Positions 8,973 through 52,802 of a DNA stretch of 64,000 bases are shown piece by piece. Numbering within the stretch: the first letter of the stretch is position 1; the number at the start of each line of letters is the position of its first letter. The notes under the pieces were generated by a model that worked only from the letters and a program-made list of their open reading frames with translations, made no database searches and was not told the DNA's origin. Both the position numbers and the translations under genes were made by a program. Origin of the DNA: Sphagnum compactum (lineage: Eukaryota); the NCBI GenBank assembly GCA_965153455.1, contig OZ234494.1, positions 2,976,001-3,040,000 on the forward strand, given 5' to 3'.

Positions 8973-8977
8973 CACAT

Positions 8978-9281
8978 TGTTATGGACCGACTACAAACAA
9001 GTGGAGAATTACAAGACAAGACAAGCTTTATTGATCCATCAACTGGTGTTGATCTGCTAAAGGGTTGTTCCCCAGACTATCTCCTTTTATAACCCTGAGC
9101 CATACTAGTCCCAAAATATCCTAGGCCATGATATTGCCAAAAGTATCCCAAAATATCCTAGGCCATGATATTGCCAAAAGTATCCCAAAATATCCTAGGC
9201 CATGATATTGCCAAAAGTATCCCAAAATATCCTAGGACATGACATTGCCAAAAGTATCCCAAAATATCCTAGGCCATGACA
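8978..9281 (-). repeat. 3' LTR (304 bp), containing 4 full and 1 partial copy of a 37-bp tandem unit (9110-9281)
   Basis: Matches 14662-14891 except for two extra 37-bp units. Minus-strand ends are TGTCATGG...CCATAACA. Minus-strand AATAAA at 9027-9032. Confidence 0.95.
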
Positions 9282-9294
9282 TTATCCTCTCCTC
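9282..9294 (-). promoter_or_regulatory. Polypurine tract (GAGGAGAGGATAA)
   Basis: Purine run directly abutting the 3' LTR on the minus strand. Confidence 0.8.
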
Positions 9295-12200
9295 AAGCGA
9301 CATCTTCTAGATGGAGCCGGTTTGTTAGGATATCGTTGGTGAAACCGATTAACTAAGTCTTGGGCATGAACTAGGTTTCCAGCAGGCTCCCAAGTAGCTT
9401 CAGAAGGAGGATAACCTCGCCAAAAGACAAGGTACAGGAGCTTTCCACGAATCTTCTTGGAGTCCAAGACCTCCTGAACTTCAAACTCTTCTTGGCCTTC
9501 AATTTCGACTGGAGCTGGGGGTTCTTGATGACGTTCTGGGATCGGGTTTTCATGATAGGGCTCAAGCAGGGAGACATGGAAAACATTGTGGATTTTGAAC
9601 TGGGGTGGAAGCTCCAACTGGCAAGCCACTAGACCAACCAATTTGGCGATTTTGAAAGGTCCGAGGCGCTTGTAATCCAACTTGGCACATGGGCGAGTGG
9701 TAGCAATGTTCTTTATGAGAAGCCAGACCTTGTCTCCAACCTTGAAGTTTGGATGGTCCTTGCGTCGGCGGTCTGCTTGCTTCTTTTGCCACTCCTGTGT
9801 TAGCTTGAGTTCTGCCATAAGGTTCTGTTGAACCTGTCCAAGCCTCGTGGCCCTTTCTTCAGCCGAGGGGTTTACGGAGTCTCCAGGAATTTCAAGGCTG
9901 AACCTGGGATGAAAACCGTAATTGGCAAAGAATGGACTGATCCCGGTCGATGCATGTGTTGTGTTATTATAAGCAAACTCTGCTTGAGATAGTAGGTCCA
10001 GCCAGTCGTCCTGTTGGTAGTTCACAGTGCAGCGAAGGTATTGCTCGAGTGTCTGGTTTGTCCGTTCGGTTTGTCCATCTGTCTCAGGGTGGAAAGCTGA
10101 AGATAGCCGAATGTCAACTCCAAGAAGCTCGAATAGACGATGCCAGAACTTGGATGCAAACTGAGGACCTCTGTCGGACACAATTTCCTCGGGGAGTCCA
10201 TGCAGTCGGACGATCCCGTCCAGAATTAACTGAGCTGTCTCTTCTGCCGTGATTGACTTGGAACAAGGGGTGAAATGGGCCATTTTGGTGAGTCGATCGA
10301 CCACAACCAGTATTGAATTCTTGGTTCTGACAGTAGGGAGGTCCGTGATGAAGTCCATTGCAATAGATCCCCAAGGTTGGCTAGGAATCGACAGAGGTTG
10401 TAGGAGTCCAAACGGGCGATGCCTGGGAGCCTTGGATCGAGCACATGTATCACAAGACTTGACATACTCCCGTAGCATCTTGTTCATTTTGGGCCACCAG
10501 TAAGTCCTTGACACTAGTTCGTGAGTCCGTGCCATTCCAAAGTGACCTGCCAGGGTGTTGTCGTGGCATTCCCTCAGGATTTTTAGGCGTATAGGTCCTT
10601 CGGGTACATAAATCAGGTTATTTCGAAGGAGAAGTCCGTCTTGCTGCTCAAATTGATCCAAGTCATCACGATTTGGGTTCCTTGGTCGTTCCTGGAGTTC
10701 CTTCTTGATGTTGGTAGCCCAGGTGTCTTCCTCAGTTGCTATCTTGATGTCCCTAACAAGGTATGAGTCTGGGAGGGTGCTGATTGTTGCTGCAACTCGA
10801 AATTGCTTGGGGTTGAGTAAAGTCTGGTTTTGCTGGCCGTAGGCCTCATCCCCCGCTCGAAGTTCATATTTTGAACGACGAGATAGCGCGTCAGCTTTCC
10901 CTTGCTGGGTGCCGGGTTGATACTGAATCTCAAAGTCGAAATCAGCTAGGAAGATAGACCAACGTGCCTGGTGACGATTTAAGGTCCGAGTAGTTGTGAA
11001 ATAAAGGAGATTCTTGTGATCTGTCAGAACTTGGACTCGATGTTGAGCTCCGGCAAGATACGGTCTCCACTGCTCGAATGCCGTGATGATTGCCAGGAGT
11101 TCCTTATCGTAGACCTGGTAGTTGATTTTGGCACTGGTTAACTTCCGTGAATAGAAAGCAACTGGATGCAGCAACCCATCTATTCCAAATTGAGATAGAA
11201 TAGCTCCCAAGGCAAAATCTGAAGCGTCCGTTTCCACAATGAATGGCTTGGCAGGATCGGGATGTATCAGGATGGGTGCAGAGGTGAATGCCATCTTGAG
11301 AGTATCAAAAGCAGCCTGGGCCGTTGGATTCCACGAGAAGGGCTTGTCTTTGCAAGTCAGGGTTATTAACGGTGTTGTGATCTTGGAGTAGCCTTTGATA
11401 AACCGACGATAGAAGTTGGCAAACCCTAGGAAGCGTTGAACGTCCTTGACCGAGGATGGAGTAGCCCAACACTGGATGGTCTCGACCTTTGACTTGTCCA
11501 TGAAAATGCCATCTGGAGAGATCACGTAGCCGAGGAACGCCACTGAAGATTTGTCGAATTCACATTTTTCCAACTTGGCGTATAAGCCATGCTCCCGCAG
11601 CGTCGCAAGCACCAATCGTACATGTTTGTCGTGGGTTTCCTGGTCCTTGGAAAAGATTAAAATGTCATCCAAATAGACCACGACAAATTCGTCCATGTAA
11701 TCCCGGAAGATATCATTCATCAGATGCTGAAAGACTGCGGGTGCATTGGTGAGGCCGAAGGGCATGACCGTGTATTCGAAGTGGCCATAGCGTGTGCGGA
11801 AAGCTGTCTTCCATTCATCACCAGGGCGAATCCTGAGTAAGTTGTAAGCTCCACGGAGGTCAAGCTTGGTGAAGATCTTCCCGGTACGTAGTCGATCTAG
11901 GAGACCTGAAATCAAGGGCAAAGGATATCGATTCTTTTTGGTTATCTTGTTGAGTCCACGATAATCCACACAAAGTCGAAGGGAGCCATCCTTCTTCTTG
12001 ACAAACAAAATTGGGGCACCGGCTGGAGACTTGGAATGCTGAATGAACCCCTTGGCAAGATTTTCAGTAAGGTAATCACGCAGGGCTTGGAGTTCCGGTT
12101 CCGATAGGCCATAGATAGGACCAAAGGGTGGTGAGTGTCCTTCTTCTAGATCAATCGGGCAGTCATATGGACTATGGGCGGGGAGCTGATCAGCATTAAT

Positions 12201-13040
12201 CTTTTCAAAAACATCAACAAAGTCCTTGTACTTCTTGGGAAGTTTGACAGGTGTTGGTTCCGATTGGGGGTTTGTGGTGTTGGCTGGGTTGACATGGATG
12301 GCGAAGACTTGAAGATTCTTAGCAGCCCGATAGAAAGGGACAGCTCTATCAACGAAGATCTGGACAGGGTTGGTTTTCTGGGCAGAATTCTTGACAAGAT
12401 TCTTGACAGGACAAGGTTTCGTTCTGACCAATCGGGGGTTCTTGACTGCAGGATTTGACATAACAGACTTGATAAAACTGGAATTGGTTCCGACCCTCTT
12501 TGGGTTCTCGACCACAGGGTTCTTGGCAGGACTGGACAAAGTGTTTTTCTGAGCGTGGGGTTCTTGAGAGGTGCATCGTTGTGCGCTGAAGGTGAGGGTT
12601 CTAGATCGCCAATCAATGATAGGGTTGTGTGCTTCTAGCCAAGGCAGACCAAGGATGATGGGATGGTGAGGGGTGGAAATGATGTTGAGAACAATCTTCT
12701 CTGTGTGCTTGCCGATACAGAGTTCTAGAGGGGTTGTCTTGTGTGTGATTGCACCAGAAGCAATGGTTCTCCCATCAATAACCTCTACCGGAACAGGGGT
12801 TGACTTCTTGACCACAGGGATGTTGTGTTGGATGACAAATGTTTGGTCGATGAAAGAAGAGGTGGCGCCGGAGTCCACCAAAGCTGACACTTGTGGTATG
12901 TCTTCTGGAATACGAATGATGTCCACATACTGAGTGAAACTGGGACTGGGACCAACAGCGGAACAGGAGCCTTTGCAAAGGTGGTGTTGGGTGAGATCCA
13001 GTCGCACGGCTTCTACTATGACTGGATGTTCTTGTTTTCC
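9282..13040 (-). CDS. pol: Pol polyprotein (aspartic protease, reverse transcriptase, RNase H, integrase, chromodomain), probably expressed by a -1 frameshift from gag
   Basis: Uninterrupted ORF 9282-13136 with [40 protein letters not shown], HHCC motif (CHD..AGH..CDTC), [18 protein letters not shown], GPF, and the chromodomain [34 protein letters not shown]. Confidence 0.95.
   Translation of the reverse strand, partial: [1252 protein letters not shown]
12963..13040 (-). promoter_or_regulatory. Putative -1 programmed ribosomal frameshift signal (G GAA AAC + 6-nt spacer + stem/pseudoknot)
   Basis: pol is in the -1 frame of gag. Heptamer at 13034-13040, 8-bp stem ATCCAGTC/GACTGGAT (13020-13027 with 12996-13003), and a possible second stem between the loop and GGCTCCTGT (12963-12971). 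Confidence 0.65.
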
Positions 13041-13987
13041 AACTCCTGGGGAGTTTCCACAGCTTGTACCTGAAGTTTGACAAGCTTTTGAGGGCATTGA
13101 CGAGCTATATGCCCTGGGTTGCCACAATAAAGACATAGATTGTTTGTCCTTCGGCGAAGTTTCTCGGCTTCTGTCAAAGATTTAAACTTAGCTGTGTCGA
13201 TCTGCATCGGAGCAGGTCCAAAAGAGGCAGGTCGGGCAACTGGTGTTGTTTGGGGAACTAAGGGGAGCGTAATAGGCCGACTGTTCCAAAGCTGGGCGTT
13301 GGAGGTGACTTTCTTTTCCTGGCAACGTTCGAACAGACGATTATCGCATCGAATTGCCTGGGTGATGGCTTCACTGAAGGAAGAAGGGTCTGCGAGTGTC
13401 AACAAAAGATCTTGAACATCATCACGAAGCCCACAGCGAAACTGATCAATCAAGGCAGCTTCTCCCCAATTGACGTCACAGGCAAGCTGCCTGAATTCTG
13501 AAGCGTAGACGATGGCCGAACGTGTCCCTTGCTGGAGGCAACGCAGCTTGTTGGCTGAAGTCCTGACCTTATCACTGTCCCCAAATACTGCTTCAAATTC
13601 CGCCATAAAGGCGTTGAAATCTTGTAGAAGAGGGGATGATGTTTCCAGGATGGGAGCAAACCATGCTGCAGCTGTCCCAGTGAGTAGGGTTCCAACGAAT
13701 CCTACACGAGTGGTGTCATCAAAATAACGACGGGGGTGTAGTTGCATGATCAGGCGTACCTGGCTGACAAAGCCTCGAAATTTGAGGCGCGTTCCATCAA
13801 ACTTTTCTGGCAGACTGATCTTGGGTTCTTGGGCGGCCATTGCAAGAGCAGGAAGTACTGGGGCAGGAGGTGGTGGCTGATTCTGTAGGCGGGTCACCGA
13901 GTCTCTAAGCACGGCATTTTCTTGTTGAAGGTGTTGAAGGGCGGCAAAGATTTGAGTGAGATCGATGTTGGATTCTGAGTTGTCCAT
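13016..13987 (-). CDS. gag: Gag (retrotransposon capsid with CCHC zinc knuckle)
   Basis: ORF from ATG at 13987 (MDNSESN...). Contains PKISLPEKFDG, LQQGTRSAIVYASEFRQLA and CLYCGNPGHIARQC. Confidence 0.93.
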   Translation of the reverse strand: MDNSESNIDLTQIFAALQHLQQENAVLRDSVTRLQNQPPPPAPVLPALAMAAQEPKISLPEKFDGTRLKFRGFVSQVRLIMQLHPRRYFDDTTRVGFVGTLLTGTAAAWFAPILETSSPLLQDFNAFMAEFEAVFGDSDKVRTSANKLRCLQQGTRSAIVYASEFRQLACDVNWGEAALIDQFRCGLRDDVQDLLLTLADPSSFSEAITQAIRCDNRLFERCQEKKVTSNAQLWNSRPITLPLVPQTTPVARPASFGPAPMQIDTAKFKSLTEAEKLRRRTNNLCLYCGNPGHIARQCPQKLVKLQVQAVETPQELENKNIQS

Positions 13988-14025
13988 GGTGGTAGTTCTC
14001 ACACTTTTGCGCTTTCAATCTTCAA

Positions 14026-14523
14026 ACTTGAAACTTCAGATGCTTGGATCTCTCTCAATACAAGTCCAAATGACATGAAATTTCTCTCACACATATATTC
14101 CTATATGATCTATAAGATCACAAAGTTACAGACCCAAAAAAGCTTACACAAAGGAGATATGACCAAAAAACCAGATCTGCACTTGAAACTTCAGATGCTT
14201 GAATCTCTCTCAATACAAGTCCAAATGACATGAAATTTCTCTCACACATATATTCCTATATGATCTATAAGATCACAGAGTTACAGACCCAAAAAAGCTT
14301 ACACAAAGGAGATATGACCAAAAAACCAGATCTGCACTTGAAACTTCAGATGCTTGAATCTCTCTCAATACAAGTCCAAATGACATGAAATTTCTCTCAC
14401 ACATATATTCCTATATGATCTATAAGATCACAAAGTTATAGACCCAGAAAAGCTTACACAAAGGAGATATGACCAAAAAACCAGATCTGCACTTGAAACT
14501 TCAGATGCTTGGATCTCTCTCAA
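14026..14523. repeat. 155-bp tandem repeat, ~3.2 copies, in the retrotransposon 5' UTR
   Basis: Unit beginning ACTTGAAACTTCAGATGCTT starts at 14026, 14181, 14336 and 14491. Copies are near-identical. Confidence 0.95.
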
Positions 14524-14649
14524 AACATATCCTTTTCTTTTGAAACTTTGAGAGTAGAAGCGTCCTATAGTCTTCTATAACCTTTCCAAGTTTCACTCCA
14601 ATATACCTCTAGCTACTTACTGAAACAACAAAACAAACAAACAAGAAGG

Positions 14650-14659
14650 AGCAGATCAA
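14650..14659 (-). promoter_or_regulatory. Primer-binding site, self-priming type (TTGATCTGCT)
   Basis: Starts 2 nt inside the 5' LTR boundary, lacks the TGG of a tRNA PBS, and is perfectly complementary to AGCAGATCAA in the LTR (14733-14742). Confidence 0.75.
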
Positions 14660-14661
14660 AC

Positions 14662-14891
14662 TGTTATGGACCGACTACAAACAAGTGGAGAATTACAAGA
14701 CAAGACAAGCTTTATTGATCCATCAACTGGTGTTGATCTGCTAAAGGGTTGTTCCCCAGACTATCTCCTTTTATAACCCTGAGCCATACTAGTCCCAAAA
14801 TATCCTAGGCCATGATATTGCCAAAAGTATCCCAAAATATCCTAGGACATGACATTGCCAAAAGTATCCCAAAATATCCTAGGCCATGACA
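14662..14891 (-). repeat. 5' LTR (230 bp) with TATA box (14769-14775) and 2 full and 1 partial 37-bp units
   Basis: Direct repeat of 8978-9281. Minus-strand TATAAAA at 14775-14769 and AATAAA at 14716-14711. Confidence 0.95.
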
Positions 14892-14896
14892 CACAT

Positions 14897-16800
14897 GTAC
14901 GAAGTTGGATAAAAAAACCTATCACACGAAATTCAATCTATAAATGTTCATATGCAAATGATACAATTAAAGGGGAACCTACGATGTGAATGTCATTGAC
15001 AATGGATGGAAATAGACAAGAAATGAAATGACTAACTATAGAATGTAAAAATTTAAAGTGGGTTAAAGTGAATAGTGCCCCCCCAAAGGATCACCTTGAC
15101 AAGTTCCCATGGTAGATGGGATGATTATGACATTGCCTTCATGATTATGGTGGTTGTAAAATAGAAAGACTCAAATGCATAAAATGCACAAACAAAGGGG
15201 ATGAATTGTATGATGTTTCCACCTATTACACGAAATTTGTGGAACATGACCCTTTTTTACACTAAATTGAAAGCATTTGCCATATCTAGTTGGAGAATAA
15301 CCTAATCAAAGTGAAGGTCTAGGGTGCACCTAATGTTGTGGATTAATGTTTCGTATCCACCCTTAGTTGCAACACTAAATTGGTGTGGGGAGAAATGTGT
15401 TGCAAAGGCATTGCGAAATTGAAGACATAGAACACGATTTGTGAGTAAATATAATGTTTCCCCCACTATAATGGGATAAACTCCACTTGAAAGCTTGGTC
15501 ATGGTTAAGAGGCAAGCCGTTCTAAGGACTCGTGCAATTTGAGGTGGAACGTGACCTTGTGCAATATGAGAACAAAACTGAAACAATTGAGAGAATCCAC
15601 CATTGAATCTTCTAGGTGAAAATAGTTTTGAAGGTGTTCAAAAACCATCCCAGAAGGACCATTTGTAAACAAATGCAACATGCATTAGAAAGTTAGCTTG
15701 AAGGAATTAGAAGAAAGCTCAAGATTTTGGTCTAGTTCATAGTCTTTTAGGAAAAGTGCGAAGTATCCATTTGATTCAAGGTGTAATGCGGTGAAAGTTG
15801 AAGCGATGTTAAAAGATGTGGGTGCAAAGGATAATGGTGCCAAAACATGAATTGTTTGAAAGTATTCCCTTGCACGTTCAAAAACTAAATTATGGGAAAG
15901 GAATTTTCAAACTATATGATCATGTTGAGGAATATGCATTGAGTTCAGACTTACTATCAAAGCTTGGGCTCGTAAAAAGAACTATTCTTGCAAGTTTTTT
16001 AGTCGCATGTTAGAAAGCACTTGAGTTGAATTCGTGTTTCCCTATGTCCTGTTACCCCACCATGAGGGGCAAAATGAAACGCCATTGGGGTAACAAGAGG
16101 AGCTGATGTTAAACAATCACATCATAAAAATCTTGTGCCAGTTTACCCATTAAAAAATGTAATGCCACTTCTACATCAAGTCGTAAAATGGTAGGGATGT
16201 GGTTGTATAATCAAATATGATAAAAGCCTAAATGAAAGGACCCGAAAACATCCAATGATGAAACCCAAGTCCAAGCTAATGCAGATGGGGTGGGAACAAA
16301 GGAAGGTATGGAGTTAGGATGGTCATTAGGGTTTGGATTAAGTGAATTAGTTGTTTGATAATAATGTTAATGATGAGTTAACCCTCGATTAATAAATTGG
16401 CGCCCACAAATGAGGCAAGAAACTTTAAGTGGAGGTTGCGAACGTGTTCAAGAGATGGGGGTAGTTGGGGGGTCTGATCATGGGCAATAGTAAGGGCTAA
16501 TAGAGTGAAAAGGGGAAAAAGGATTGCTTGTGCATGATCAAGGACTTTAGGAAAGTGTAGGGTTGGGGCCCCACAATCACAATAAGGGTTGGGGGTTGGT
16601 AAGGGGAATTGTTAAATGGTGAATGGTTTGTTAAAATGGGAGGGGAAACTAATGGGTGGTTTGTAGTTTGCATAGGAGATGGGGTGGAAGATAGGTCTAC
16701 GGTGGCACATGGTAAAGCAAATGGGTAATGGGAGCTACAAGCTTCAATTAAACATGATGAACTAGGGGACATGGGACATTTAATGCCCATGAGGAAGGAG
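14897..16800 (-). mobile_element. Degenerate CRE-like LINE, copy 2, 5' part (N-terminal zinc finger and RT domains 0-5)
   Basis: ORF 15302-15586 KLSSGVYPIIVGETL...FSPHQFSVATKGGYETLIHNIR, then LQLDMANAFN, QGDPLGG (~15078-15098) and FPSIVNDIHIVG. CLICGRQF...LTHH lies at ~16370-16417. The frame continues across the Gypsy TSD into 8972. The 5' boundary is approximate. Confidence 0.75.
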
Positions 16801-22792: not shown

Positions 22793-25704
22793 TCATTGTG
22801 GCTGTCTCTCTGCCATTGTTTTTGCCTCTGTTTTTGGTTGGAATGCTTTGAACATGCTCCCAGAGACAACAGACTCTGGTGGATTGGGCATACCAAGAGC
22901 ATTCCACACAGAGCTTTGTGCTGCTTCTTTGGGATCACCTACTCTCAAACTCTTTGGAGCCCAGAGAGCCCCATCAACTCGCCTACCTTCAGGTCGATCT
23001 CTTGGGTGCTTACCTAACACAGGAGTTGTTGTACCAGGCAGTCTACTGACAGGCAACACACTGCCATTTACTGTTGAGGCAGCAGCTGGAGCACCAGCAA
23101 CTGCTGCTGCCCATGGCAGGGGCACAGTCCAACCTCCCCAACCTGGAGGAACAACCCAATGAGACCCAGGCATCCCTGGTAGGAGAGATGCCCATGGAAG
23201 AACTCCAGCTCCAGTCCAAATACCATTGGGAGGTGCGTTCCAGGTTGCCATTCCATTCCCTGATAGTAGCTGTCCAGTTCCAACAACCCCATGGCTTCCA
23301 GCAGGCACTGTCCCACTCCACCCAACATTAAATCCATAAGGCCAAGCCCCATTGTAGAAGCTAAAGGGACCTCCTGTGCCACCAGCAGCCAAAACACCAG
23401 CATCACCCACTGCCATTGGCCTGTACAAACCCCCAACATCAGGTTGGAGAATAGGATGTAAGGGTATGGGGACTGCAGTATTAGCAGCTTCCTGGGTGGT
23501 GGTCGAATCTTGTTCTGGTAGAGAACTGGCACACTCATCAACTTCTTCCTTCTTTTCTACTTCAGATGGTAGCTCACCAGCACCATTTACACCATTTTGT
23601 GATCCATTCATAGCAGTAATTTGGTGGACTTCACCTGCTACTTGAAAGCCTTCCATCATGCTGATCTCACCACCTGCTTCCAAACAAGAGAATGTACTGT
23701 TTAGTCTTCAATGATAGTAATTGGAAAGTCCATTGGAACCAAGGTTTTAGTGTCAAACAACCAACCATTGATAACAGTTTACAGAAAGAAGACAATAGAA
23801 CATCAGATATCAACAAACACCAACTTTGTGACATGCATCCCATTCAAAATGAGACCAATCACATGGTTTAACTATTTGCTCCAAGACTCCAGTGCCTTTT
23901 AAGTAGGACAGGGCACACAAATCAATGTCCCTGCTTGCAAATAAAGGACACCTGATCCAGAGTGCATACTGCTAAGGTGAAGATCAACAATAGCACCATT
24001 CTTAACAAACTATGGTTTTAAAGGGCTAATTCATTTTGCATGACACTGACCTGAGGCATCATGAGCATCTTTGCAGGGATACAGCTGTGGAGGAACTGTC
24101 CCTGATGCATGCCTTGAAAAAACTGCACCATCAGGAGGGCCATGGTCTTGACGGATTGATGTAATTGTACTACTACCAGAACTAGCATCAAGAGCTGGGA
24201 GGGCAGGACATTGGCGAGGGATCTGAGGATGCTTCAAGGGGGAGATTCTTGACCCAGCGCAGGGGAGTAGCTGCTGTACACTCTCCTGGGAATCAGCTTC
24301 AACCGTAGCAACAACTGACCGATCAGCCATTGCGCCATTCCGAGCCTGCAATCCGACATGTTTGTTCTTCCTGCGACCTGCTCCAACAGGAACATTTCTT
24401 AGTGTGCCTCCAGCAGTCCAGTACCTCTGGCAGTTCTTGCAAAAGTGGCGAGGCTGATTTATGTTGTAGTTGTTGTAGTAGCAAAACTTTGTATCCAGGC
24501 TCTCACACCGAGGACAAGGGGCTGGCTTATCTGGCTTCTTTAGATTTTTCCCTTGGGACCCAACTTCTTGACCTCCTTCTTCTGCCTCCTTGTGTTCATT
24601 ACTTCTCCCCTGGCTGTCCTCAGCTGTTGCAACAGCTACTGAATTGGTCCCTGTGGCTGTCACAGTCAAGTCAGTCTCCTGTTTGCCAGACTTCAATGAC
24701 TTCTCGTCCTCTGCTGCCTCTGCAGGTTCATTGCTACCTAAGGAGCTCCCAAGCTCATCCACAGGTCCCGTTCCCATTGCTTTACAATTATCCTCTGTCC
24801 ATTGCACAGTTTCTTCTCCTACCTCCTCTGCATCCCCTTCCTCCTGTGCATGCCTACCTTCCTGCACAAAGCACAATACCAACAGAGTCTTCTTCTTTGA
24901 GAAAAAAATTCCCTCTCTTTTCTCTGATGTTTCAGATATACCAACAGAGTCTTCTTCTTTGAGATAAAATTTCAATCTGTTTTTTCATGATGTTTTTTAG
25001 CTATTCCACAGACATTCTTCTGTGGAGTCCATGACAAGATACTCGGAAAGAGTCTGAAAGAGGAACTCATGTGACGGTAACCTAACCTAGAAACCTTCAA
25101 CAGCAGTTGATACTTTCAGAGGAAGGATCCGGTGATCTTAGACATCGATAATAATAGTTACTGAAGAAATCAGCAAACGATTTGATTTGCTTGAACAAGC
25201 ACAGATCAGCGACGCGGCATGTTGTCGATAGAAGAAGAGGAAGAAGACGACAGCCTTCTGTAAAGACGACATGCGGAAAATGTATACACATGAAGGAAGG
25301 AAGAAGTCCTACACAACGACGACCTTTGTAACTGCCTTTGCTATGTGGCTTCCAAGTGCGTTTACAAAATCAGACTCCTACTGGAAACAAGTCCGGACAT
25401 GTATTCCCTATCGCATTTCGGTAAACAAACAACGGAACTGCGAAGCAGGAAGCCGTAGATAGAGTGAAGAGGAGAGGAGGGAGGAAAACAGGCAACCAAC
25501 CTCAGTGCACGGGGGAGCGCCTTTCTGCAGCGGGCAGTTAGGATCGTCCGTGATCACTTCGCCGGTATCGGCATCGACAACAGCACCGCCTGCAGTTACT
25601 GGAATGGTTCTACCGAAAAGCTTGATGGCGGGGTCTGCAGTCACAGGGGGACTTGCCGCTTGTTCTTCCTCCTCCTTCATCAGCCACTTTCTAAGCTTGG
25701 ACAT
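22793..25704 (-). CDS. Dof zinc-finger transcription factor, CDF (cycling Dof)-like. Exons 25704-25501, 24861-24051, 23673-22793 (~631 aa)
   Basis: Dof domain [51 protein letters not shown]-terminal IKLFG, C-terminal [27 protein letters not shown] and MFKAFQ. Two phase-compatible GT-AG introns give a 1896-nt frame. The start could instead be the ATG at 25680. Confidence 0.9.
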
Positions 25705-32067: not shown

Positions 32068-32535
32068 AGGTATGTATAGGCAGGTAGGAAAATAGCCACC
32101 TATTTTCCTACCTACCTACCTACTTTCCTATTTTATTATGGGTTTTCCTCTAGGTAAGAAAATATGTCACATAGGAAAATAGCATATCAAAATAGGTAGG
32201 AAGATAGCCACCTATGTTCCTACCTACCTATCCACATCTTCCTACCTTGCTACCTACCTAATGTGGCTATTTTCCTACCTATCTATCTATTATCCTTTTT
32301 TCTTATGGGTTTTCCTATAGGTAAGAAAATAGGTCACATAGGAAAATAGCATATCAATATAGGTAGGAAGATAGCCACCTATGTTCCTACCTACCTATAC
32401 ACACCCTCCTACCTTGCTACCTACCTAATGTGGCTATTTTCCTACCTACTTACCTATTTTCTTAAGGGTTTTCCTATAAGTAAGAAAATAGGTCACATAG
32501 GAAAATAGCATATCAAAATAGGTACCTATGTTCCT
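32068..32535. repeat. ~160-170-bp tandem array rich in AGGT/ACCT, left segment
   Basis: ATAGGTAGGAAGATAGCCACC recurs at 32192 and 32359, with a partial copy at 32518. Confidence 0.8.
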
Positions 32536-35500
32536 ATCCTTTGGATAACTATAAAGATTTTTTCATTTTCTTTTACAAAGAAGGATATATATTCCAAAAA
32601 ATATTTCAATTTACTATAACAGCTGGTTACACATTTATTTTCTTAAAAATTCCTTTACCAACTATATTTATGTCGATTTTCAAATTTCAAACATGGCGGA
32701 TATGCATATCAAAATTTCAATTCTATTATTACTTAATAAAAAGGAACTTACAATAGTAACCTAGCTTTTCAAAACACAAGCAACATGAACAAATTCAAAC
32801 AAAATCAAACTTGTGGGGGAACCAAAACCTAGTTTTTAAAAACTCTGCCCAAGTGCAGCACAAGCTCCTTGCCCCACCCACACAAAACACAAACCCAACC
32901 CAGTCCCACAAAATTAATCACCATCAACCTCCAATTTTTCAAAAAAATTATGTTCTTCAATTCAATTGCCAAAGACTTTTCTGCTCTCAGTATTGCTTGA
33001 AGTTTGAATTTGGCTTACAATTGGCACGCGAGTCGTTAGGCAAACTGATCACCGCAGTAATAATCTAATCCACATTCTCCACTTGCAAGCGACAACACCT
33101 TAAAGCTATCAACACCCTTACAAGACTAAAAACTCGTTTAGTTTCTATCTATGAACCCATAGATAGAATTCCAAGAATTTGTTTTGCAAGGAAACCCATA
33201 TTTGGAAATTGGCCTTCATGCATCCACCACCAAGCTAATGGATTTGCACATACGGATGAATGAAAAAAAAGCCTCCTTAATAAAGATAATTCCCCAATGA
33301 CTAGCGTTTGAGAAAATTCTTCAATTGAAGCCCCAACCCCAAACATGTTTTTTTCATGTTTTGGTCCTATAACATCAATTGTTGCAATAACAGATGTACC
33401 AACAACAGGGTTTAGTCAATCAAAACATACCATCAAAAGAAGAACAACCACCTCGACATCACATTCAGATGCCAATTGGATTGCATTCTCGCATCCCATT
33501 AAGTTTTCCACTATGCATAATGCCTTGAAACAGGGATCCAACATGATAGCCATCATGTTGTGAGCTTGCCTCGCGTTAAAAGACCTTAGAAACTCCAAAA
33601 AAGGTTTGATTACTTTTACTACTTCTAACTACATATTCCTATGCAGAAGGCAGGTCTCTGCCTCAAACAATCAAATATTTCAGACCCAATAGAAAGCTCC
33701 AACAGTTGAGCTTCCATTTCCATAGTAAGGGTAATGGTTGTTGTCAAGGCATCTAACAACAACTAGTGGCCCCTACTTTGATTCATCACATAAGCAAATA
33801 CAACAAGATTCAAAGTAAAGGTGATTGCCTCAACAATAGCCCACACTTGGGCTTTAGGTACTCTTTGCTATAGAGCAATAGACTTATGCCTACCATAACA
33901 AATAATTATGGCATTCTTCAACTCAAGGGTTTTTTCAAACATGATGACCTTGTTGGCGAATCTTGGTTTCATAGGGGTCTTCAATTTTTTATGTCGCATG
34001 CCGCTTCCAGAAGAAGCCTATTCCCATTCTTGCCTTCCTTTCCAGGACTTTTTAGTCCATGTAATGGTTTTTTATAAACCACTTTGAGTTTTTTTCACAT
34101 TAACATTTCTTAGCCCAACATAATTTTTTTCATCATTTGTTGCATATTGATAAGCCTTGGACATCACATGCCCAAAGCGTGTGCCTTCATAAACCTTAAG
34201 AATCTTTAAGGGCTCATAGTCAATGATGGAATGCAGAACTATTACCATAGTAGAAAGATTTGTGACTTCATTTTTTACGAATGTAATAACTCAGTGTAAT
34301 AGACCAAATCTGTCCAACAAAACTTGTATTTGTACAGCCATTGACTGTCCAATTGTTTCATTCACCTCATACAACCCCATAGTTGTCATGGGCACCCAAT
34401 CATCACTCAAGAAATTGATAACCAAAATAAAAGTATCAACCCCACCATGAGACATCCATAAATCAAAACTAGCAGAAACCACTATTGTTAATGCAAGATT
34501 TGGCAAAACATGATGGTCCATGGTCTTCTTGACCATGGTTGGCAACACTTCCTCCACAAAAAGAAGATTGAAAAAGAAATAATACATGGGGGCTTTGGTG
34601 TAAAACTAACTTCTAAAGTCAAACATTCTCGTAAGTTGACAAACACCTATAACCCTTGCAAATATACAAGACCAAATCCTCCAGAAACCGTTGTTGTTAT
34701 TCGTTAGTTTTTTTGTAAGGGTTTGTGACACCAAAAAATGAAGTAATTGAATAGGCAGATGGAGTTGTTTTTTTTTCCCTGATTGCCAAACATGAGTTAC
34801 AGGTTCTCCCACCTTCTCACTAAGTTGTTGTTTCCTTTGTGCAAATAACCTTGGATGTGTAGTTTGCACATGAGTAGTCATAGGAGTAATACCATTTACC
34901 ATGTTACACTTAATTAAACCTTTGCGGAATGTAGATCTTTGAGCCAAAACATCATTAGATGTTTGCTCATATTTGCAAATTATACACCGCAACATTTGTG
35001 GTTTCATCAAATCCACCAACAAACCATCATTGACAGCAAACAATCCCCAACATGTAAATAAGCAGTTATTAGGTCTTTAAAACACAATTTGTGCTTCAAC
35101 AACAGCAAGTTGTGAAGCATCGACATTTGAGATGTTGGGAGCTTACAAATGCTGAACATTTGCAATGGTTGAAGATGGCACATGAACAAGGGTAGAAGTC
35201 GACATATGAACAAGGGCAGTTTACAGCATATGAAGAAAGGAAATTGATGGAGTATATTCATTAACTCCACCCACATTCTCGACATAATAACATTCCTCTT
35301 CAACCTATCCACAAAACACAAACAATGCACTAACTAAGACAAGAACAATGCCTTAGAAACCCTAAACTTAAAGACAAAAGAATGGAAATTAAATTGGAAG
35401 CTTACCTTTGTTGGCAACTACGCTATTACAAAAGATTATTGAACAACAAAACACGCATCTAATGAATGCCACTTGTAACCAACGAGTGCCAAGGAACTAA

Positions 35501-36865: not shown

Positions 36866-37110
36866 TAGGGTAGGAAGATAACCACTTATGTTCCTACCTA
36901 CCTATACACACCTTCCTACCTTGCTACCTACCTAACGTGGCTATTTTCCTACCTACCTACTGACCTTTTTTATTATTATTATTGGTTTTCCTATAGGTAA
37001 AAAAATAGGTCACATAGGAAAATAACATATCAAGATAGGTAAGAAAATAGTCACCTATGTTCCTACCTACCTATGCACACCTTCTTACGTTTTTGCTACC
37101 TACCTAAAGG
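36866..37110. repeat. Right segment of the same ~170-bp AGGT/ACCT array
   Basis: Near-identical to 32359-32535 (TATGTTCCTACCTACCTATACACACC...CCTTGCTACCTACCTAA). Confidence 0.8.
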
Positions 37111-39299
37111 GCTTTGTTTTAGGGTATAAGTTACCAAGGTGGAACTTGACAACTATTCCATTGGGTTCATTCACAATTGATTCTAATAAGTTTGGTGTAT
37201 GGTAAAGCCTAAGGGTCCCAAAATAAGGCTTTATTACGAGGCAATAGTGGGACCTTGGCCTTGTATTCATAGATCAAACAATACTTACACCTACTCCTTA
37301 AGAGTGGATGGGATCTTCCATCTATAAAAGACCACCCCAAACCTAGTGTTTTGGCATTGGTGTTTGTGCCCACCCTAACATTTTTTTTTTCATTTTGCAA
37401 ATGGATCAAGGGTTACACATGATCAAGAACATTAAGTACATGTTTTAATTTTCTTTTTTCATTGCCATGTGGTAAAAACTATGGTTGGCTGATTATTACA
37501 AACATGAACATATGTTAGTGATTAACAAAGTAATTATTAAGATTCATAACAATGGTTTTGACCAAAACAAACAAAGACCCAATTTTGGTATACAATCATG
37601 GTTCTCAAAAAACTTGGAAAAAAATTCAAATAGTCAACCACAAAAAATGGTTGGTTCTTTCATGAAACCCACAAGTTTTTAAAGGTTTTTGAAATAACTA
37701 GGATTTATAATTCTTTGATTCTAAATTTTTCAAAGGATATTAGAACTGACAATTCTATTATTTTAAAATGTTTCAAAAATTAAAATCGATGATTCTTTAA
37801 CAATTCAAATAATTGAGATCATTGGTAAAAACTCTAATGCCTACCATCCATCATCAATTAAAAATCAAAGCTATGTTTTTTTTTTTTTTTGTCAACACCA
37901 TGCTTTTGTTAATAACTAATGTAATTTTTTCATCTTCGAGATTTGAGGTGCATCCAACCTATATATCATGTAAGTTTTTTTTCTTTTTTCTTTTTCAAAT
38001 ATTCCATTGTTGCATCTTTGTTTTTATGCATTCTATTTATATTCAAGTTCCTTTTGCAAAACTTTCATGATGTTTTTATGTGTTTGCATTTTTTATTTTT
38101 TTGCATGTGTATATAGGGTTTCATTTTGTAATTTCATTGTGCTTCATTATTGGTGCAACTTTCAATGAATTGTTCTGTTTTGTTTTTATTGCCAATTTGT
38201 TGCATCGGATTTTTTTGGCATTTTTGTTTTTACAAAAGTAATTGTGTTATTTTGTGTTTGATCACTTTTTTATTGCATAACATGTTTACAAGTTTTCATT
38301 TTGTGAGTTCACAACATTTCATCATTTATGCAACATTGAGAGAACTTTTCATTTTAGATTTTGTTCTCAATTTGTTGCATCCTTTGTTTATTACAATTTG
38401 GTTTTGTTGCAATAAACAATGCAAAACTTTGAAGTTGTACAAGTCATAAATATGTTCTTCCCATCAGCATGCTCCAAATTCTATACATTTGTAGTCCAAT
38501 AGTGAAGCTCCTTATATTAATCTTTTATTATGTCACTTGTTGTAAGTACTATTAACTATATCAATTGATATTTAATAAAACAAGAATATCACAAAATAAT
38601 AATTGTTATAGAAATAATAAATCGTGGGTATGCTTGGAATATGACTTTAATATATTTTATGTGTATTTTAGATACATGTTTAATTATCTCAAAAATATAC
38701 ATATACATAAATTTATGTTTGATATATTTTAATATGCTTTAAATTTGAACTATATATGATTTTAATTTTAGTCCTTGTACACATTTTCATGATGCACTTG
38801 TACAATGTCTTAATATGCTTCCAATATCCTTTTGAAAACTTTGAATTGATTTTACTATTTCATAAAGATGTAATAAATTTTGGTCACATTTGCATTTAAT
38901 GGGACATATATGACTTTACTTGATGAAAATAAAATAACAAGTCAATTTTTTTAAAAGATGAAGGAAACAATAGTTGCAAATGACAATTTAGCTGCATGTT
39001 ATTACAAATTTATTGGTTATAAAAGACAAGATTTTTAAAATAATGTTGCCAAACATCATAACCATGCAAAGCTTGATCAATTTGAACCACTCGGAAACGT
39101 GGTGGTTCAAAATCTTGCTAAACCTTAGTTTCTCCCACATTATGGTTGTAGGGTTGTAATCAATAGGACATTACATGGCAATTGCGCATTGGTTTTGCAT
39201 GGTCAATGTGAAAAATGAGGATTGTTGTGGGCCCAAAATGTACTTGAAGAAGGGCCATGATCCTGGGCAAAGTAGTAAAACCTCTATAACCAACCAATA

Positions 39300-43964: not shown

Positions 43965-44685
43965 AAACTACTACTATTCTAGATAGGTACCTTATTGTCG
44001 GTTCTATTTAGTTAGGTGTAGTGGGTAACAACTCAAAGTGCAATTTCATTCTTGTTTTTCAATGAACCATTTTGATTGACGCATCACAAAATTCCTAAGG
44101 ATTTTGCAACATTGCACACTCCCCAAAACATATAAGTAAGTCGGCACTCACTTGCCCCAACCCAAGATAGAATCATTAAAAATACTTCTCCCTTTGGCCG
44201 ACCTTCTATGTAGAAGAGTATGAAAGTTGTTCGGCTTTTTACCCAAAGCTTATTATCCAAGTGTGGTGGTGGTATCGGGAACAACTTGGGGGACCACATT
44301 GGAAAGTTGGGGAACATGTTGGGAACACAATGAGAACTTGGTGAGAACACACTAGAAACCACAAAATCACCTTGGTAAAAATCCCCAAATTTCACTTAAA
44401 TTATTTTATAAATACTACAAATACCCCATGTTGAGACAAAATCAAGGTTTTGGAGTTTAAAAAATCAAACCCTTTTTTTCAGGCTTAATTAATTTGGCCA
44501 CTAAGAGGCCTCACTAAAAAAGGGCGAAGGTAAGAAGGTACCAACATGAGTGCTCCCGTTGACCCACCCACCTAGCCACCCCGAGAGGGAAAAGAAATTG
44601 AATTTTTTGGATGAGAGGAAAGTCTTTTTCTTAAACAAGTTCGTCCCCCATTTTTGCCTTCACTAATCCCCCCCACTCCACAATT

Positions 44686-44900
44686 GTGGGTACCATAATA
44701 TTTTTGAAAACAAATACCCCACTCACTCCGTGATGGTGGGTGCCATAATATTTTTGAAAACAAATACCCCACTCGCTCCGTGATCGTGGTGGGTGCCATA
44801 ATATTTTTGAAAACAAATACCCCACTCACTCCGAGGTTGTGGGTACCATAATATTTTTGAAAACAAATACCCCACTCACTTCGTGATCGTGTGTACCATA
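44686..44900. repeat. ~50-52-bp tandem repeat, ~4 copies
   Basis: GTGGGTRCCATAATATTTTTGAAAACAAATACCCCACTCRCT repeated. Confidence 0.9.
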
Positions 44901-47900
44901 TTTTCACAACAAGACAAATTACCACGGTAGGTCCAAGTTGGGGGGCTCAAAGCCAAATTTAGGCAACGTGTGTCAAACTTGGCATTCGCATGGTAAGTTC
45001 TACTTACTTACCATGCGGTTGACGGTTTGACACCGGCCAAAGGGTTCAATCAATGGAGGCAAGTTCTAGCCTCATCACGCTCAATTTGGGGGGGGGGGGG
45101 AGAACAAAGAACTTTGAATGGAAACAACAAGAGATGTGTGAGGTATGTATCAAGAGTAGTAGAATTTAGCTCAATTGGGGGTTTAGGGTTTATGTGTGAG
45201 GTATGTATCAAGAGTAGTAGAGATTTAGAAGGCAAAAAGGGAGGCCCATCCCACCTTCCCTTTGTGTAAGAATGATGTTAGCATAATGTCATGTTGATTG
45301 ATGTCATTTTGCACACCAAAAGCTAGACTAGATTTCTTATAGTAAAAAGAGAAGAGGATAAACACAAGAAAGAGAGAAGGAGGAGATATATGAAATGTCT
45401 ACTAGACTTTTGTTATTTACGTATCTCACCAAAACACACAAACACATACACACAACACAACTCAATACAAACACATACACACAACACAACTCAATAGTAG
45501 CAACACTTGAAAGGCTCATCAAATGTCAACTATGTGATTCCTTTCAAAGGAAAAAGGATTTCACCCAAACACCCTTTGCACTTCACCCAAATTTCAACTA
45601 GAAATTTCGTGAGGTCAAGGGAATCTACAAGGTGATTTCATCAACAATTTTGGCCTATATTGTAATCTACAAGGGGGCAGCTTCAGCACATGTCATTTTG
45701 AAAATTTAATACTATTTTAATATTCCCAAAGTACCCCCCCCCCCCTCTCATTTTCCTTCACAATTTATTTTTCTTTGAGAAAAAAAAAATTTTGGGGAAA
45801 ATTTTAACATTTCTAAATATGTAATATAATCTATGTGCTGAAGCTACCAAGGCACTATGGTGGTATGTATGTAGAGAGAGTTTTTATTTTCAGGTCATGC
45901 CCTTCATGACCAAAGTTTCATTTGATTATTGCCCTTTAGGTTTGAAAGATTACTAATTTTTTGTCATTAATTATAAGGATTTTACCTTCTTTGAAAGACA
46001 ACAAAGCTTGTCAACAAGTAGGCAAAAGGGGTCCTTTGTGTCATAAGTTATAAGTGGATCATGATTTGCTTGAGTGTTTAGAAAATATTGTTTAAAATAA
46101 ATTTTAATGTAAATTTTAGGGGAAAAATCATATATTGCAATGCTAGAGGGTTCTTAATGAAAATTTGAAATTCCAATCTTGTAGTATGTATTGAGATATA
46201 TTCATACATGTGAATATAATTTGTATTATGGTAGTATTCTATAAACACAAAAATATTGTCTTGCAAAACAAATAACTTCTACATCTATGAAAATGCTATA
46301 ACTATAACTAAATTTGTATGAGGAGCAATTGATGTATTTTGATCAATATAAGTTCAATGCATCTTTTGACCAATTTATTGGCCCATTCATTAACAATGAC
46401 TATCCAAAATGCATCTACTTGGGTTGTGTTAAATCTACTACATTTTCCCACATTAGAAAGCAACTTAAGTTTTTAAGAAATCCCATTCAATCAATTTTTA
46501 AAGTGTTAAAAGGGACATATATGCTATTGCCATATGAAGTTTGTTTGTGAATACAAACATGATAACAATGTGATTTTTTAGTTGGTATGTAAGGTATGTT
46601 TGTGGGTGAAGTATTAGTAAACATCATTGCAAGATTCAAAAACAAGTCCAAAACAAAGTATTTTGTGTCAAAACCCAATAAGGTTATAATCAACATGGAC
46701 AACCCATTATGCCAAAAACCCCAAGATTCTTCTTCTTATATGTAACAAACACTCGTTATATACTAATCTACAAGAGGAATATTATATAAAACTAAACCAC
46801 AACAAGAAAATTTATAATACTAAAAAAAAATGGAAATACACTATCATTTTTGTTGGACATTAAGCAAACCGATAACCATGTGTGATGTAAGGATGATCAC
46901 ATGTTATTGCCATGTAAACACCCACAAACAATTATGTCAAATCAAAGAAATCCCTATTTGGTCACACATATGAATTTTACAAAGTTGTATGGTGACATCT
47001 TTTTTTAGATGCAAGTGTATATCCTTGATCCTTGCTAGTAGCAATTTATCTAGAATTAGCAAAAGCACGATTCAAAAAAAAAAAAATTCCCATAAAAATG
47101 TGGACAACATTAATTAAACTACAAAAGATTGTACAAAGAGAAGCAAATAATATGACAAAATGCTAACAAAATGATCATATAAGTTTTAAAAAAAAACAAT
47201 ACCATCATCCTTGAATGGATATCGCAAATGTTTGTCGACTAAAGAACTTCAGCATTATTTTTGAAAACTTTGGCATAGGCAATATTATTAACGAGATACA
47301 TAATTATAACAAGTATGCAATAGTCCCAATGTGTTTAGACCATGTGGCGTTTAGGTGTTTGGTCTTGTAAACCTAGATCCAATCTCCAATCTAATAGATT
47401 TCAATTACATTAAAATTAGACATTGTGGGTTTTTTTTAACATTTAAAAATAATAATATAATTAATCCTGAATTCCATTTAGGGAGTATGGTAAAATAAAA
47501 AAAAGAAAGAAAAAAGAATATAAGAACCAAAGTAGCATAAAAATGCAATGCCAACGCATTGAAAACAAATTGAAAAACAATATTAGCTACTGGATTTAAG
47601 GTCAACTAGAGGGATGTCTTGACATGTCGTAATTAAAAAAACCCCGCACCATTTCTTTATCAAATTTATTGTTTTTTGTTTGGGTTAAGGTTCAACTTAC
47701 CTTATCTCAATGTGCATGTTGTCTTTCCTAACATGTTTGGTGTCCTTCTTGATGCCCTTGTTGTCCCTCCTATTGATCCTTGTTATCCTTCCCAACACCC
47801 ATGATTGTCCCCTCTTGCTCCCCATCATCCATCGCTAGTGCCAATTGTTTTCCCTTGTTAGTCCCCATTGTCCTTCTTGAGGTGCCATCACCTTTCATCA

Positions 47901-49324: not shown

Positions 49325-49557
49325 CTACCTATCTACCTACCTACCTACCCACTCAGCCACCCACCCTAAGAAATTGAAAAAAAAACCCCACACATTGGTG
49401 GGGGGACATTACCTACCTACCTATCTACCTACCTGCCTACCCATTTAGCCACCCACCCTAAGAAATTGAAAAAAAAACCCCACACATCGGTGGGGGGACA
49501 TTACCTACCTACCTATCTACCTACCTATCTACCCACTCAGCCACCCACCCCAAGAAA
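49325..49557. repeat. ~90-bp tandem repeat (CTAC-rich), ~2.5 copies
   Basis: CTACCTAC...AGCCACCCACCCTAAGAAATTGAAAAAAAAACCCCACACAT..GTGGGGGGACATTA repeated. Confidence 0.85.
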
Positions 49558-50028
49558 ACCATTAGAAAGCCATAGAAGATCTCCCAGGCAAATTACCTTG
49601 GAAGGGTCATCAAGGAACTATTTTAGGAAAGAAAGCTCTTAGTTACATTGACTTTGAGTGTGATGTCATATACATGTACATATACAAAATTTATACAATA
49701 TAAATATTATCTCACAAAGCCAATGTCTCAAGAAACAAAATGGGCTTCAATTGGTTGATGCCATGTGTATTTTATACACATAAAAAAATATACTATATTA
49801 TACTATACGCACATGTGAAGATGTAGTAATATCTCGTATGGGATGGTCAGTTTCAGTGGGCTAGTGCTGAAATTCAACTATAAAGTAAGGCAATTTCTCA
49901 ATTTATATTAAATTTAAAATAAAATTAAAATTTAAAAAAAAAAAAAACAAAGGTGTTCCCACACATGGGGTTCTCAAATATTCGGACTCGAGTTTTCTAT
50001 GTATTTTTCTTGCCATTATTTTTGCATC

Positions 50029-50476: not shown

Positions 50477-50640
50477 TAAGACGACTACCTATTTTCAAAA
50501 GTAGAAGAAGTACGATCCTAAAATTTTGGACTATATTTGGCTTCCAGAACTTTTAGTTTTTAGTAGTTTCAAATGATTCCTTTTTTTTCTTCTCCTATGA
50601 ATTTCATACCGGCTGGCATTCAGCAACATGGATCAGTTTT

Positions 50641-51095
50641 CACATTTTCATTGCTCCAATTTGAAACTTTTTAGAATATGAATCATCTATACAGATTTAC
50701 AAATTTTCATACAATTCATTAAAAATTCTTATGAAATTTCTGAGAATTCTCATCACATTTTCATTGCTCCAATTTGAAACTTTTTTGAAGATTAATCATC
50801 TACACAGATTTACAAATTTTTATGCAATTCATCAAAATTCTCATGAAATTTTTGAGAATTCTCGTCACATTTTCATTGCTCCAATTTGAAACTTTTTTGA
50901 AGATTAATCATCTATACAACTTTTTACAATTTTTTATACAACTCATCAAAATTCTCATGAAATTTTCTGAGAATTCTCGTCACATTTTCATTGCTCCAAT
51001 TTGAAACTTTTTAGAATATTAATCATCTATACAGATTTACAGTTTTTTATACAATTCATCAAAATTCTCATGAAAATTCTGAGAATTCTCGTCAT
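50641..51095. repeat. ~113-bp tandem repeat, 4 copies
   Basis: CACATTTTCATTGCTCCAATTTGAAAC starts at about 50641, 50754, 50867 and 50981. Confidence 0.92.
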
Positions 51096-51410
51096 TCATT
51101 CATTCATTTGGCTCAGCTTCTAAAATTAATTTCTGCCTTATCTAACTAAAAGGTAGGGTACCCACCCCTCCTTTTGACTTTTAACCATTGTGAGACCCCC
51201 CCCCCCCTTTGTTTTTTCCCCACCCCACTTTAGAAGATATTATAGACAAGCTCTATTTTGAACCACACAAAAATTGTAGAATAGGGTTTTAGTCAAAGAC
51301 CCTACTTGAGCCCTATTTTTGGCTACTTTAGGTCAACATTTGGTAAGTAGGGTTTGAAAAAGAGTGGGAAAAAACCCTACTTTAAACCCTAACTCTGTTT
51401 TTTCTCTCTC

Positions 51411-51990: not shown

Positions 51991-52766
51991 ATGGGAAGTG
52001 TATTGTCACAGGAAGAGATAACAACAAACATCAGTACAAAAATCATGGATAGGAGAGCAATGGTGGCAGCGGCGGCGGCGGCGGCGGCGGCAGCAGCAGC
52101 AGAGGAGCAGGAGGAGAAATGGTTGAATAGTGAAACAATAGCAATCATGTTGCTTTTGAACTGGGCAGCCATGGCAGTGGATGACTTAGATGAGAATGAG
52201 AAATGGATCAGCTTGGTCAGCTCCATTGATGAGCCACAGCTTGATGTGCTTCTGCAGATGCCTTGGACACCAGAAGTCCTGGACCATTTCTTCCAATGGT
52301 TTGTCAACCACAAGCTGTTAAATGGAAATATTGATACATGTAGTAGCATTTATCATCCAATTCCTGAAATTTCGGTGGGGAGCTCTCAGATCCTGGCAGT
52401 TGATCATGCTGCTGAGAGTCCACCACCAATTCCAGGAATGGGTTGGAGCTCTCAGATCCTGGCAGTTGATTGTGCTGCTGGGAGTCCACCACCAATTCTG
52501 GGATTGGGTAGGAGCTCTCAGATCCCAGTTACACTTGATCCTGAGTCTAGTGCACCACCATCCCTAGTGGAGAGCTCTCAGATCCCAGAACTTCATCCTG
52601 AGTCTAGTGCACCCACACCACCACCACCACCACCAGGCTTGACAAATTTGGTTCAACATGAGAATGTTGTTGCAGGTGGAGATCAAGAGTCGTGGCCTTA
52701 CCAGAGTTTTTTCAATGTGGCTAGTGTTGGGTATGAAGATCATGATCAGTCTTCACATCTGCTACA

Positions 52767-52802
<36 letters not shown>

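Follow-up and report, generated by a model that had tools for sequence, protein, structure and literature searches.

The 64-kb stretch of DNA analysed here (the window) carries on its minus strand a recent Tf1/sushi-group chromovirus, most likely a Tcn1-clade member, that with a probability of about 0.9 primes its minus-strand DNA with its own RNA. The self-priming mechanism is already known from Tf1 and has been predicted for the Tcn1 clade, and it is unsurprising to a specialist. In the accessible parts of the literature, it is experimental for yeast Tf1, while for plants it is predicted from complementarity only. The added value of the family described here lies in a compensatory change within the pairing and in integrated strand-switch copies, both of which make the prediction for plants firmer.

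The element is a Ty3/gypsy chromovirus, which is illustrated by its TG...CA LTRs, its target duplication, the order of protease, RT, RNase H, and integrase, and a C-terminal chromodomain (Table 1). In the chromodomain, F, W, and Y occupy three positions that presumably correspond to the aromatic cage of HP1. The two LTRs differ by no substitution, the sole difference being two extra 37-bp U3 repeats in the 3′ LTR, and the insertion is therefore recent. The unequal number of these repeats within a single element (14793-14891 and 9183-9281) is an observation in its own right, as is the variation of the 155-bp leader repeats (14026-14532), of which about two to five are found per copy across the family. 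The gag and pol frames overlap by 166 nt, with pol in the -1 frame, and the G GAA AAC at 13034-13040 (minus strand), near the gag end within this overlap, is presumably a candidate -1 frameshift site.

Table 1. Features of the element in window coordinates.
Feature	Position	Strand	Remarks
Target-site duplication, left copy ATGTG	14892..14896	-	same 5 bases at 8977-8973
5′ LTR, 230 bp, TG...CA	14662..14891	-	equals 3′ LTR minus two 37-bp repeats
37-bp tandem repeats in U3	14793..14891	-	2.7 copies in 5′ LTR, 4.7 in 3′ LTR
TATA box TATAAAA	14769..14775	-	
Predicted self-primer AGCAGATCAA, putative RNA 5′ end	14733..14742	-	
Small hairpin overlapping the primer	14722..14737	-	formable in main subfamily; without conservation
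R arm GTTGATGGA of R-U5 stem	14719..14727	-	
AATAAA, candidate polyadenylation signal (used in 3′ LTR)	14711..14716	-	putative function
U5 arm TCCATAAC of R-U5 stem	14663..14670	-	
2-nt gap GT separating LTR from PBS, tip of unprocessed cDNA	14660..14661	-	end-to-end junction LTR-GT-AA-LTR (n = 1, G000)
Primer-binding site (PBS) TTGATCTGCT	14650..14659	-	
155-bp tandem repeats, T-rich 5′ leader	14026..14532	-	copy number varies among family members
gag, 323 aa from first Met; Retrotrans_gag, zinc knuckle	13016..13987	-	
pol, stop-to-stop open; protease, RT, RNase H, integrase, chromodomain	9282..13181	-	
Polypurine tract (PPT)	9285..9294	-	
3′ LTR, 304 bp, TG...CA	8978..9281	-	
Target-site duplication, right copy ATGTG	8973..8977	-	

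A quick tree was built from 56 RT-RNase H rows and holds no Tf1, sushi, Tcn1, or moss references. In it, the element falls into a 22-row clade (support 96), the nearest and sole named row of which comes from the fungus Cunninghamella at 67% identity. The enclosing 50-row clade (SH-aLRT 100) takes in fungal, vertebrate, and protist rows, and outside of it stand three Asteraceae chromoviruses (45-46% identical in RT-RNase H) and two Closterium rows. The element is thus placed in the Tf1/sushi group and most likely in the plant Tcn1 clade; because the tree contains neither Tcn1 nor moss references, the Tcn1 label is drawn from the tree position together with the size, the target duplication, the arrangement of the genes, and the chromodomain.

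Elsewhere in the window, a host gene with a 738-aa AP2-domain ORF lies at 51991-54207 (plus strand), and a Dof zinc-finger ORF at 24031-24777 (minus strand) with a possible further exon at 22793-23659 (minus strand). Repeated 70-nt units at 56477-57895 putatively resemble PPR-coding sequence when judged by eye; the same region harbors an exact direct repeat of 130 nt and, at 57373-57702, an inverted repeat of 87 nt. The stretches 32100-32592, 36869-37129, 44636-44941, 49325-49600, and 50621-51104 consist of tandem arrays with units of 167, 50, 92, and 113 bp, and CTAC runs abound in two of them.

The 5′ LTR ends on the minus strand with ...CCATAACA at 14662 and is followed by GT (14661-14660) and by TTGATCTGCT (14659-14650), while TGG was not found among the first bases 3′ of the LTR. 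A perfect 10-nt complement of this PBS, AGCAGATCAA, begins at 14742, 33 nt downstream of the first T of TATAAAA at 14775. Both features had been described in the original prediction, namely GT followed by a PBS that is not a TGG-type tRNA site (14661-14650) and the complement at this distance from the TATA box, and both descriptions are exact. As controls for chance, 63,342 minus-strand positions of the window were used, with the two LTR regions excluded. A perfect complement of at least 10 nt anywhere in the 230-nt LTR occurs for 26 of them, and one within the 30 nt that begin 25 nt behind the TATA box occurs for a single position. The primer/PBS match is additionally the sole perfect inverted repeat of at least 8 nt within the first 300 nt of the element.

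Compensatory change between primer and PBS, a check named in the original prediction, is found between subfamilies but not inside the main one. The sister subfamily, represented in genome G000 and in metagenome contigs, carries AGCAGACCAA / TTGGTCTGCT, in which a U-A pair has become C-G through changes in both partners. Within the main subfamily only one-sided changes occur and none is compensatory, its copies being too similar and young. Among 53 distinct copies in G000, 41 form all ten pairs, four keep every pair with one G-U, and eight break at least one pair. The identical G-to-A change in the PBS is carried by six of these eight; the base sits in a CTG context, and decay of methylated cytosine after insertion is a plausible source. 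Two copies combine a main-subfamily LTR with a single letter of the sister subfamily, L228 (G000:C8:5333053) with the G in the PBS only, which leaves a G-U pair, and L226 with the C in the primer only; recombination between the subfamilies is a possible origin.

The layout recurs in distant relatives. Of 26 metagenome loci with LTR pairs, 22 have a CA end at the repeat boundary (L080, L084, L088, and L097 were excluded for missing it), and 21 of these 22 show a complement of 7-11 nt after a 2-nt gap; they represent about five families, 15 rows belonging to one. Viral contigs supply three distant loci. Of 38 loci that were scanned, the ones that lacked either DNA upstream of gag or a credible candidate did not enter the swap control. 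In the 19 families of this control, the PBS matches its own LTR over 7-12 nt, and cross pairs reach at least 8 nt in 2 of 342 combinations. The LTR end of 13 of the 19 rows was chosen through the complement search, which renders these "own" values partly circular, and the TATA spacing is therefore the independent part of those rows. A TATA-like motif lies 31-36 nt upstream of the primer in 11 families and 39-42 nt upstream in three, and is missing in five.

Judging from the TATA distance alone, transcription probably starts at or just before 14742. A stranded poly(A) run contributes 541 reads on 13900-15100, mostly in the sense direction, and runs labelled "moss metagenome" contain near-identical sequence, so that the host, a plant by its AP2 and Dof domains, is probably a moss. 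No pile of read starts was found in one raw-read run and three contig sets, in which reads from the 5′ and 3′ LTR are indistinguishable; most RNA runs cover only a small share of the 64-kb stretch. Given a family that is both young and transcribed, it should be possible to read the RNA start and the ends of the cDNA directly from tissue.

In a modelled RNA that begins at 14742, all ten primer:PBS pairs form with a pairing probability of 0.75-1.0 per pair, and the same fold contains a second stem, in which GUUGAUGGA of R pairs with UCCAUAAC from the end of the LTR. This R-U5 stem outscores swapped partners in five of six close rows and in one of four distant rows. The hairpin ATCAAC-ACCA-GTTGAT, which had been proposed as a competitor of the primer, is indeed present at 14737-14722, overlaps the primer, and amounts to -5.3 kcal/mol in the window copy, but it did not hold up as a conserved competitor. 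The sister subfamily has lost pairs of it (-2.6 kcal/mol), seven other relatives have a different fold or none in its place, and no fold-back junctions were found at it; a role as conserved switch was therefore rejected. The primer:PBS fold is favored by 6.4 kcal/mol over the fold in which the hairpin is forced (-23.9 versus -17.5 kcal/mol). The 3′ arm of the hairpin is better read as one half of the stem with the LTR end, and the hairpin itself would be able to form in the 3′ R, which is not followed by a PBS.

Integrated copies that switch strands at the primer/PBS match look like fossils of a reverse transcription that uses this pairing. The first case, L060, reads U3, primer, and then the start of the minus strand. 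Pattern searches in G000 yielded ten such sites in nine elements (for example, C2:20802116-20808238), beside at least 98 exact normal LTR-gap-PBS-leader junctions. Two types can be differentiated. In five copies (L152, L153, L154, L155, and L230), LTR, GT, and PBS are followed by an inverted U3 and then by a jump to the leader or pol. In the other four (L156, L157, L158, and L226), U3 and primer are followed by an inverted piece of U5 and a jump; L158 and L226 are the weakest cases, as their inverted piece measures merely 6-10 nt. They are most simply explained by a plus strand that, having copied the primer, terminates within the PBS and folds back onto R, since the beginning of R on that strand is complementary to the plus-strand end. 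A longer primer, be it the 3′ R or plus-strand DNA, would give identical letters, and the junctions thus speak for an RT that uses the pairing and not for the site of an RNase H cut.

The same copies could have arisen after insertion, by host repair at the 10-bp inverted repeat, or could be chimeras of the assembly, an unlikely explanation that nonetheless deserves weight and that concerns this evidence only. A switch anywhere within the ten shared bases would yield the identical junction, but the structure of L152 points to a rearrangement before integration: the same tail stands behind each of the two LTRs, the right end consists of the inverted U3 and abuts the target duplication, and one private variant is common to all four U3 arms. 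An inverted LTR end also adjoins the target duplication in L153. Perfect 5-bp duplications flank eight of the nine copies and four of five bases agree in the ninth, and the arms of the copies differ at 1-5 positions, unlike those of read chimeras. On the side of repair or chimeras, the junctions are absent from four runs of other samples, and no inverted repeats at LTRs were found in 82 metagenome or viral loci. The small hairpin and a second GATCAA yielded no junctions of this kind, which is a weak control, as these matches share only 6 bases.

With the junctions read as products of reverse transcription, it appears somewhat more probable than not that self-priming leaves a signature in the genome, in that snap-back products integrate and make up several percent of the family (9 beside 98). 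If this is general, such junctions would provide in vivo evidence of plant self-priming, they could be mined in any assembly and would separate self-primed from tRNA-primed families, and they would represent a built-in error cost of self-priming. A literature search that stopped short of the primary Tf1 papers turned up no description of fold-back junctions located at a self-primer, and the junctions may be new.

Further accidents at the 5′ end are seen in four copies. R-U5 is replaced by a piece of gag between short shared words in L047 (about 170-390), R is joined to gag-like sequence in L062 (about 4640 on), the primer is joined to the leader in L042, and the PBS is deleted directly 3′ of CA-GT in L061 (about 3295). 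Separately, L035 and L036 (G000:C1:16.95 Mb) are nearly identical, lie on opposite strands at a distance of about 5 kb, have a stop in gag of each, and are possibly an inverted duplication.

One end-to-end LTR junction, CA-GT-AA-TG, was found (L151, G000:C12:9637604-9637627, inside the complex copy L153), which retains both unprocessed dinucleotides. It carries no primer, and no end-to-end junction with a retained primer was found in addition. The cDNA in L151 ended right after the gap, as expected upon removal of the primer. Tf1 keeps its primer on the cDNA.

Taken together, the proposed reaction would start with transcription from at or just before 14742. Subsequently, the first ten bases of the RNA would pair with the PBS, a structure that is closed by the R-U5 end stem and for which complementarity and covariation argue. 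The RNase H of the element may then cut behind base 10 or 11, by analogy with Tf1, and free a 3′ end, which RT would extend over the 2-nt gap into U5, in agreement with the CA-GT tip of the one end-to-end junction. The plus strand that is initiated at the PPT would copy the primer and hence end in the PBS. Its end, complementary to the start of R, would sometimes snap back, copy U3 backwards, and jump internally, and these products, to which the structures of the strand-switch copies correspond, would still integrate. Self-priming as inferred in the original prediction is supported by the chance tests, by the compensatory change that separates the subfamilies, by a layout that distant relatives share, and by the strand-switch junctions.

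It is very unlikely that the pairing is structural, with a role in packaging, translation control, or strand transfer, and that another RNA, the 3′ R, or a second genome in trans serves as the primer. Covariation demonstrates pairing and not priming, and the junctions carry U3 ahead of the primer, with which a 3′ R copy or a plus-strand DNA primer would agree. However, in 21 of the 22 loci the match stops precisely 2 nt away from the LTR, at the point required of a primer end, the cDNA tip CA-GT is in line with this end, and priming by the RNA's 11 initial bases with cleavage by RNase H is reviewed as shown for Tf1 (PMC7175516).

Priming by a host tRNA or tRNA fragment, with the LTR match as a secondary feature, is hardly to be expected. 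The comparison of the PBS with host tRNAs, also foreseen in the original prediction, revealed none that fits among 67 distinct tRNA genes (ARAGORN, 26 anticodon labels), an incomplete set that was called in 30 loci and 26 further stretches, following a tRNA search with 63 matches listed, and in which some genes stem from small contigs and are maybe organellar. No 3′ end in this set pairs over more than 2 nt with the PBS, and the best internal Watson-Crick match is 7 nt, although matches of 10 nt close to the PBS arise for three tRNAs once G-U pairs are allowed. According to the accessible part of PMC6317226, copia elements of mosses include cases of half-tRNA priming, and a tRNA-Met PBS is assigned to 5% of Tcn1 elements, which speaks for a tRNA. 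Against it stand the missing TGG and a PBS that differs in nearly every family and tracks its own LTR, which a fixed set of tRNAs would not yield. Chance complementarity, for which only the shortness of the 10-base match would speak, is negligible given its rarity at the control positions and the repetition of the layout in unrelated sequences, and is refuted by the covariation.

Among known systems of the Tf1/sushi group, Tf1 and Tf2 from Schizosaccharomyces pombe, Tj1, Tosmo1-3, and Tcry1 share with the window element a PBS that is complementary to the presumed RNA start and the lack of a tRNA site; they also have in common with it a chromodomain integrase and a flanking stem that involves the LTR. 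In Tf1, the PBS is paired with the initial 11 bases, and the RNase H cut falls between base 11 and base 12 (PMC7175516, in its accessible part), with which the earlier statement on priming of Tf1 by its own mRNA start agrees. Self-priming has also been described for Tj1 (PMC4600332), and in Tf2 the choice of the start site decides whether a primer is made (PMC5341516). The primer of the window element measures 10 nt instead of 11, and its gag and pol overlap in two frames, which differs from the Tf1/sushi group. Cleavage of the primer by RNase H is shown for Tf1 only; the window element encodes an RNase H domain. Of the three duplexes of the Tf1 "pretzel" (bioRxiv 10.1101/2022.12.06.519325), two are clear in the window element (central and R-U5), and the third is weak (-3.6 kcal/mol in its family). 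The distant relatives L096 and L097, with 11-nt primers, loops of more than 200 nt, and a third duplex of -13 to -15 kcal/mol, come nearer to the full pretzel than the window family.

Among plants, the TAR lineage of Ty1/copia (Houba, Osr-1) is likewise predicted to self-prime (89%, PMC6317226) but belongs to another superfamily than the element with its gypsy domain order and chromodomain. The seed-plant chromoviruses Tekay, Reina, Galadriel, and CRM share the domain order, but use tRNA-Met sites (PMC6317226). The Tcn1 clade is known from non-seed plants including moss and club moss, with PpatensLTR and SM-Tcn1 as members (Novikova 2010, PMC2864245; Neumann 2019, PMC6317226); for SM-Tcn1 from Selaginella, the accessible part of the 2010 paper gives no sign of self-priming or tRNA priming. 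In the 2019 survey, 83% of 1,500 Tcn1 elements are predicted to self-prime and most are described as lacking tRNA sites. The original prediction had regarded the element as a tRNA-independent exception among plants; the self-priming stands, but it is not unusual in its lineage, for which it was predicted in 2019 (PMC6317226). The rule of that survey, a complement of at least 10 bp located 0-5 bp after the LTR, describes the window element as well (10 nt, 2-nt gap). With the clade, the element shares its size (5.9 kb; 5.5-9.4 kb in the clade), the 5-bp target duplication, and a gag that overlaps pol (PMC6317226), as well as a chromodomain with an aromatic cage, a T-rich leader, and likely a non-seed host (PMC6317226, PMC2864245). 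Sphagnum is not mentioned in the main text of the survey, and its element lists may include the window family. As far as the accessible part of the survey goes, its Tcn1 predictions are drawn from complementarity alone, without covariation or strand-switch copies, both of which are present in the window family.
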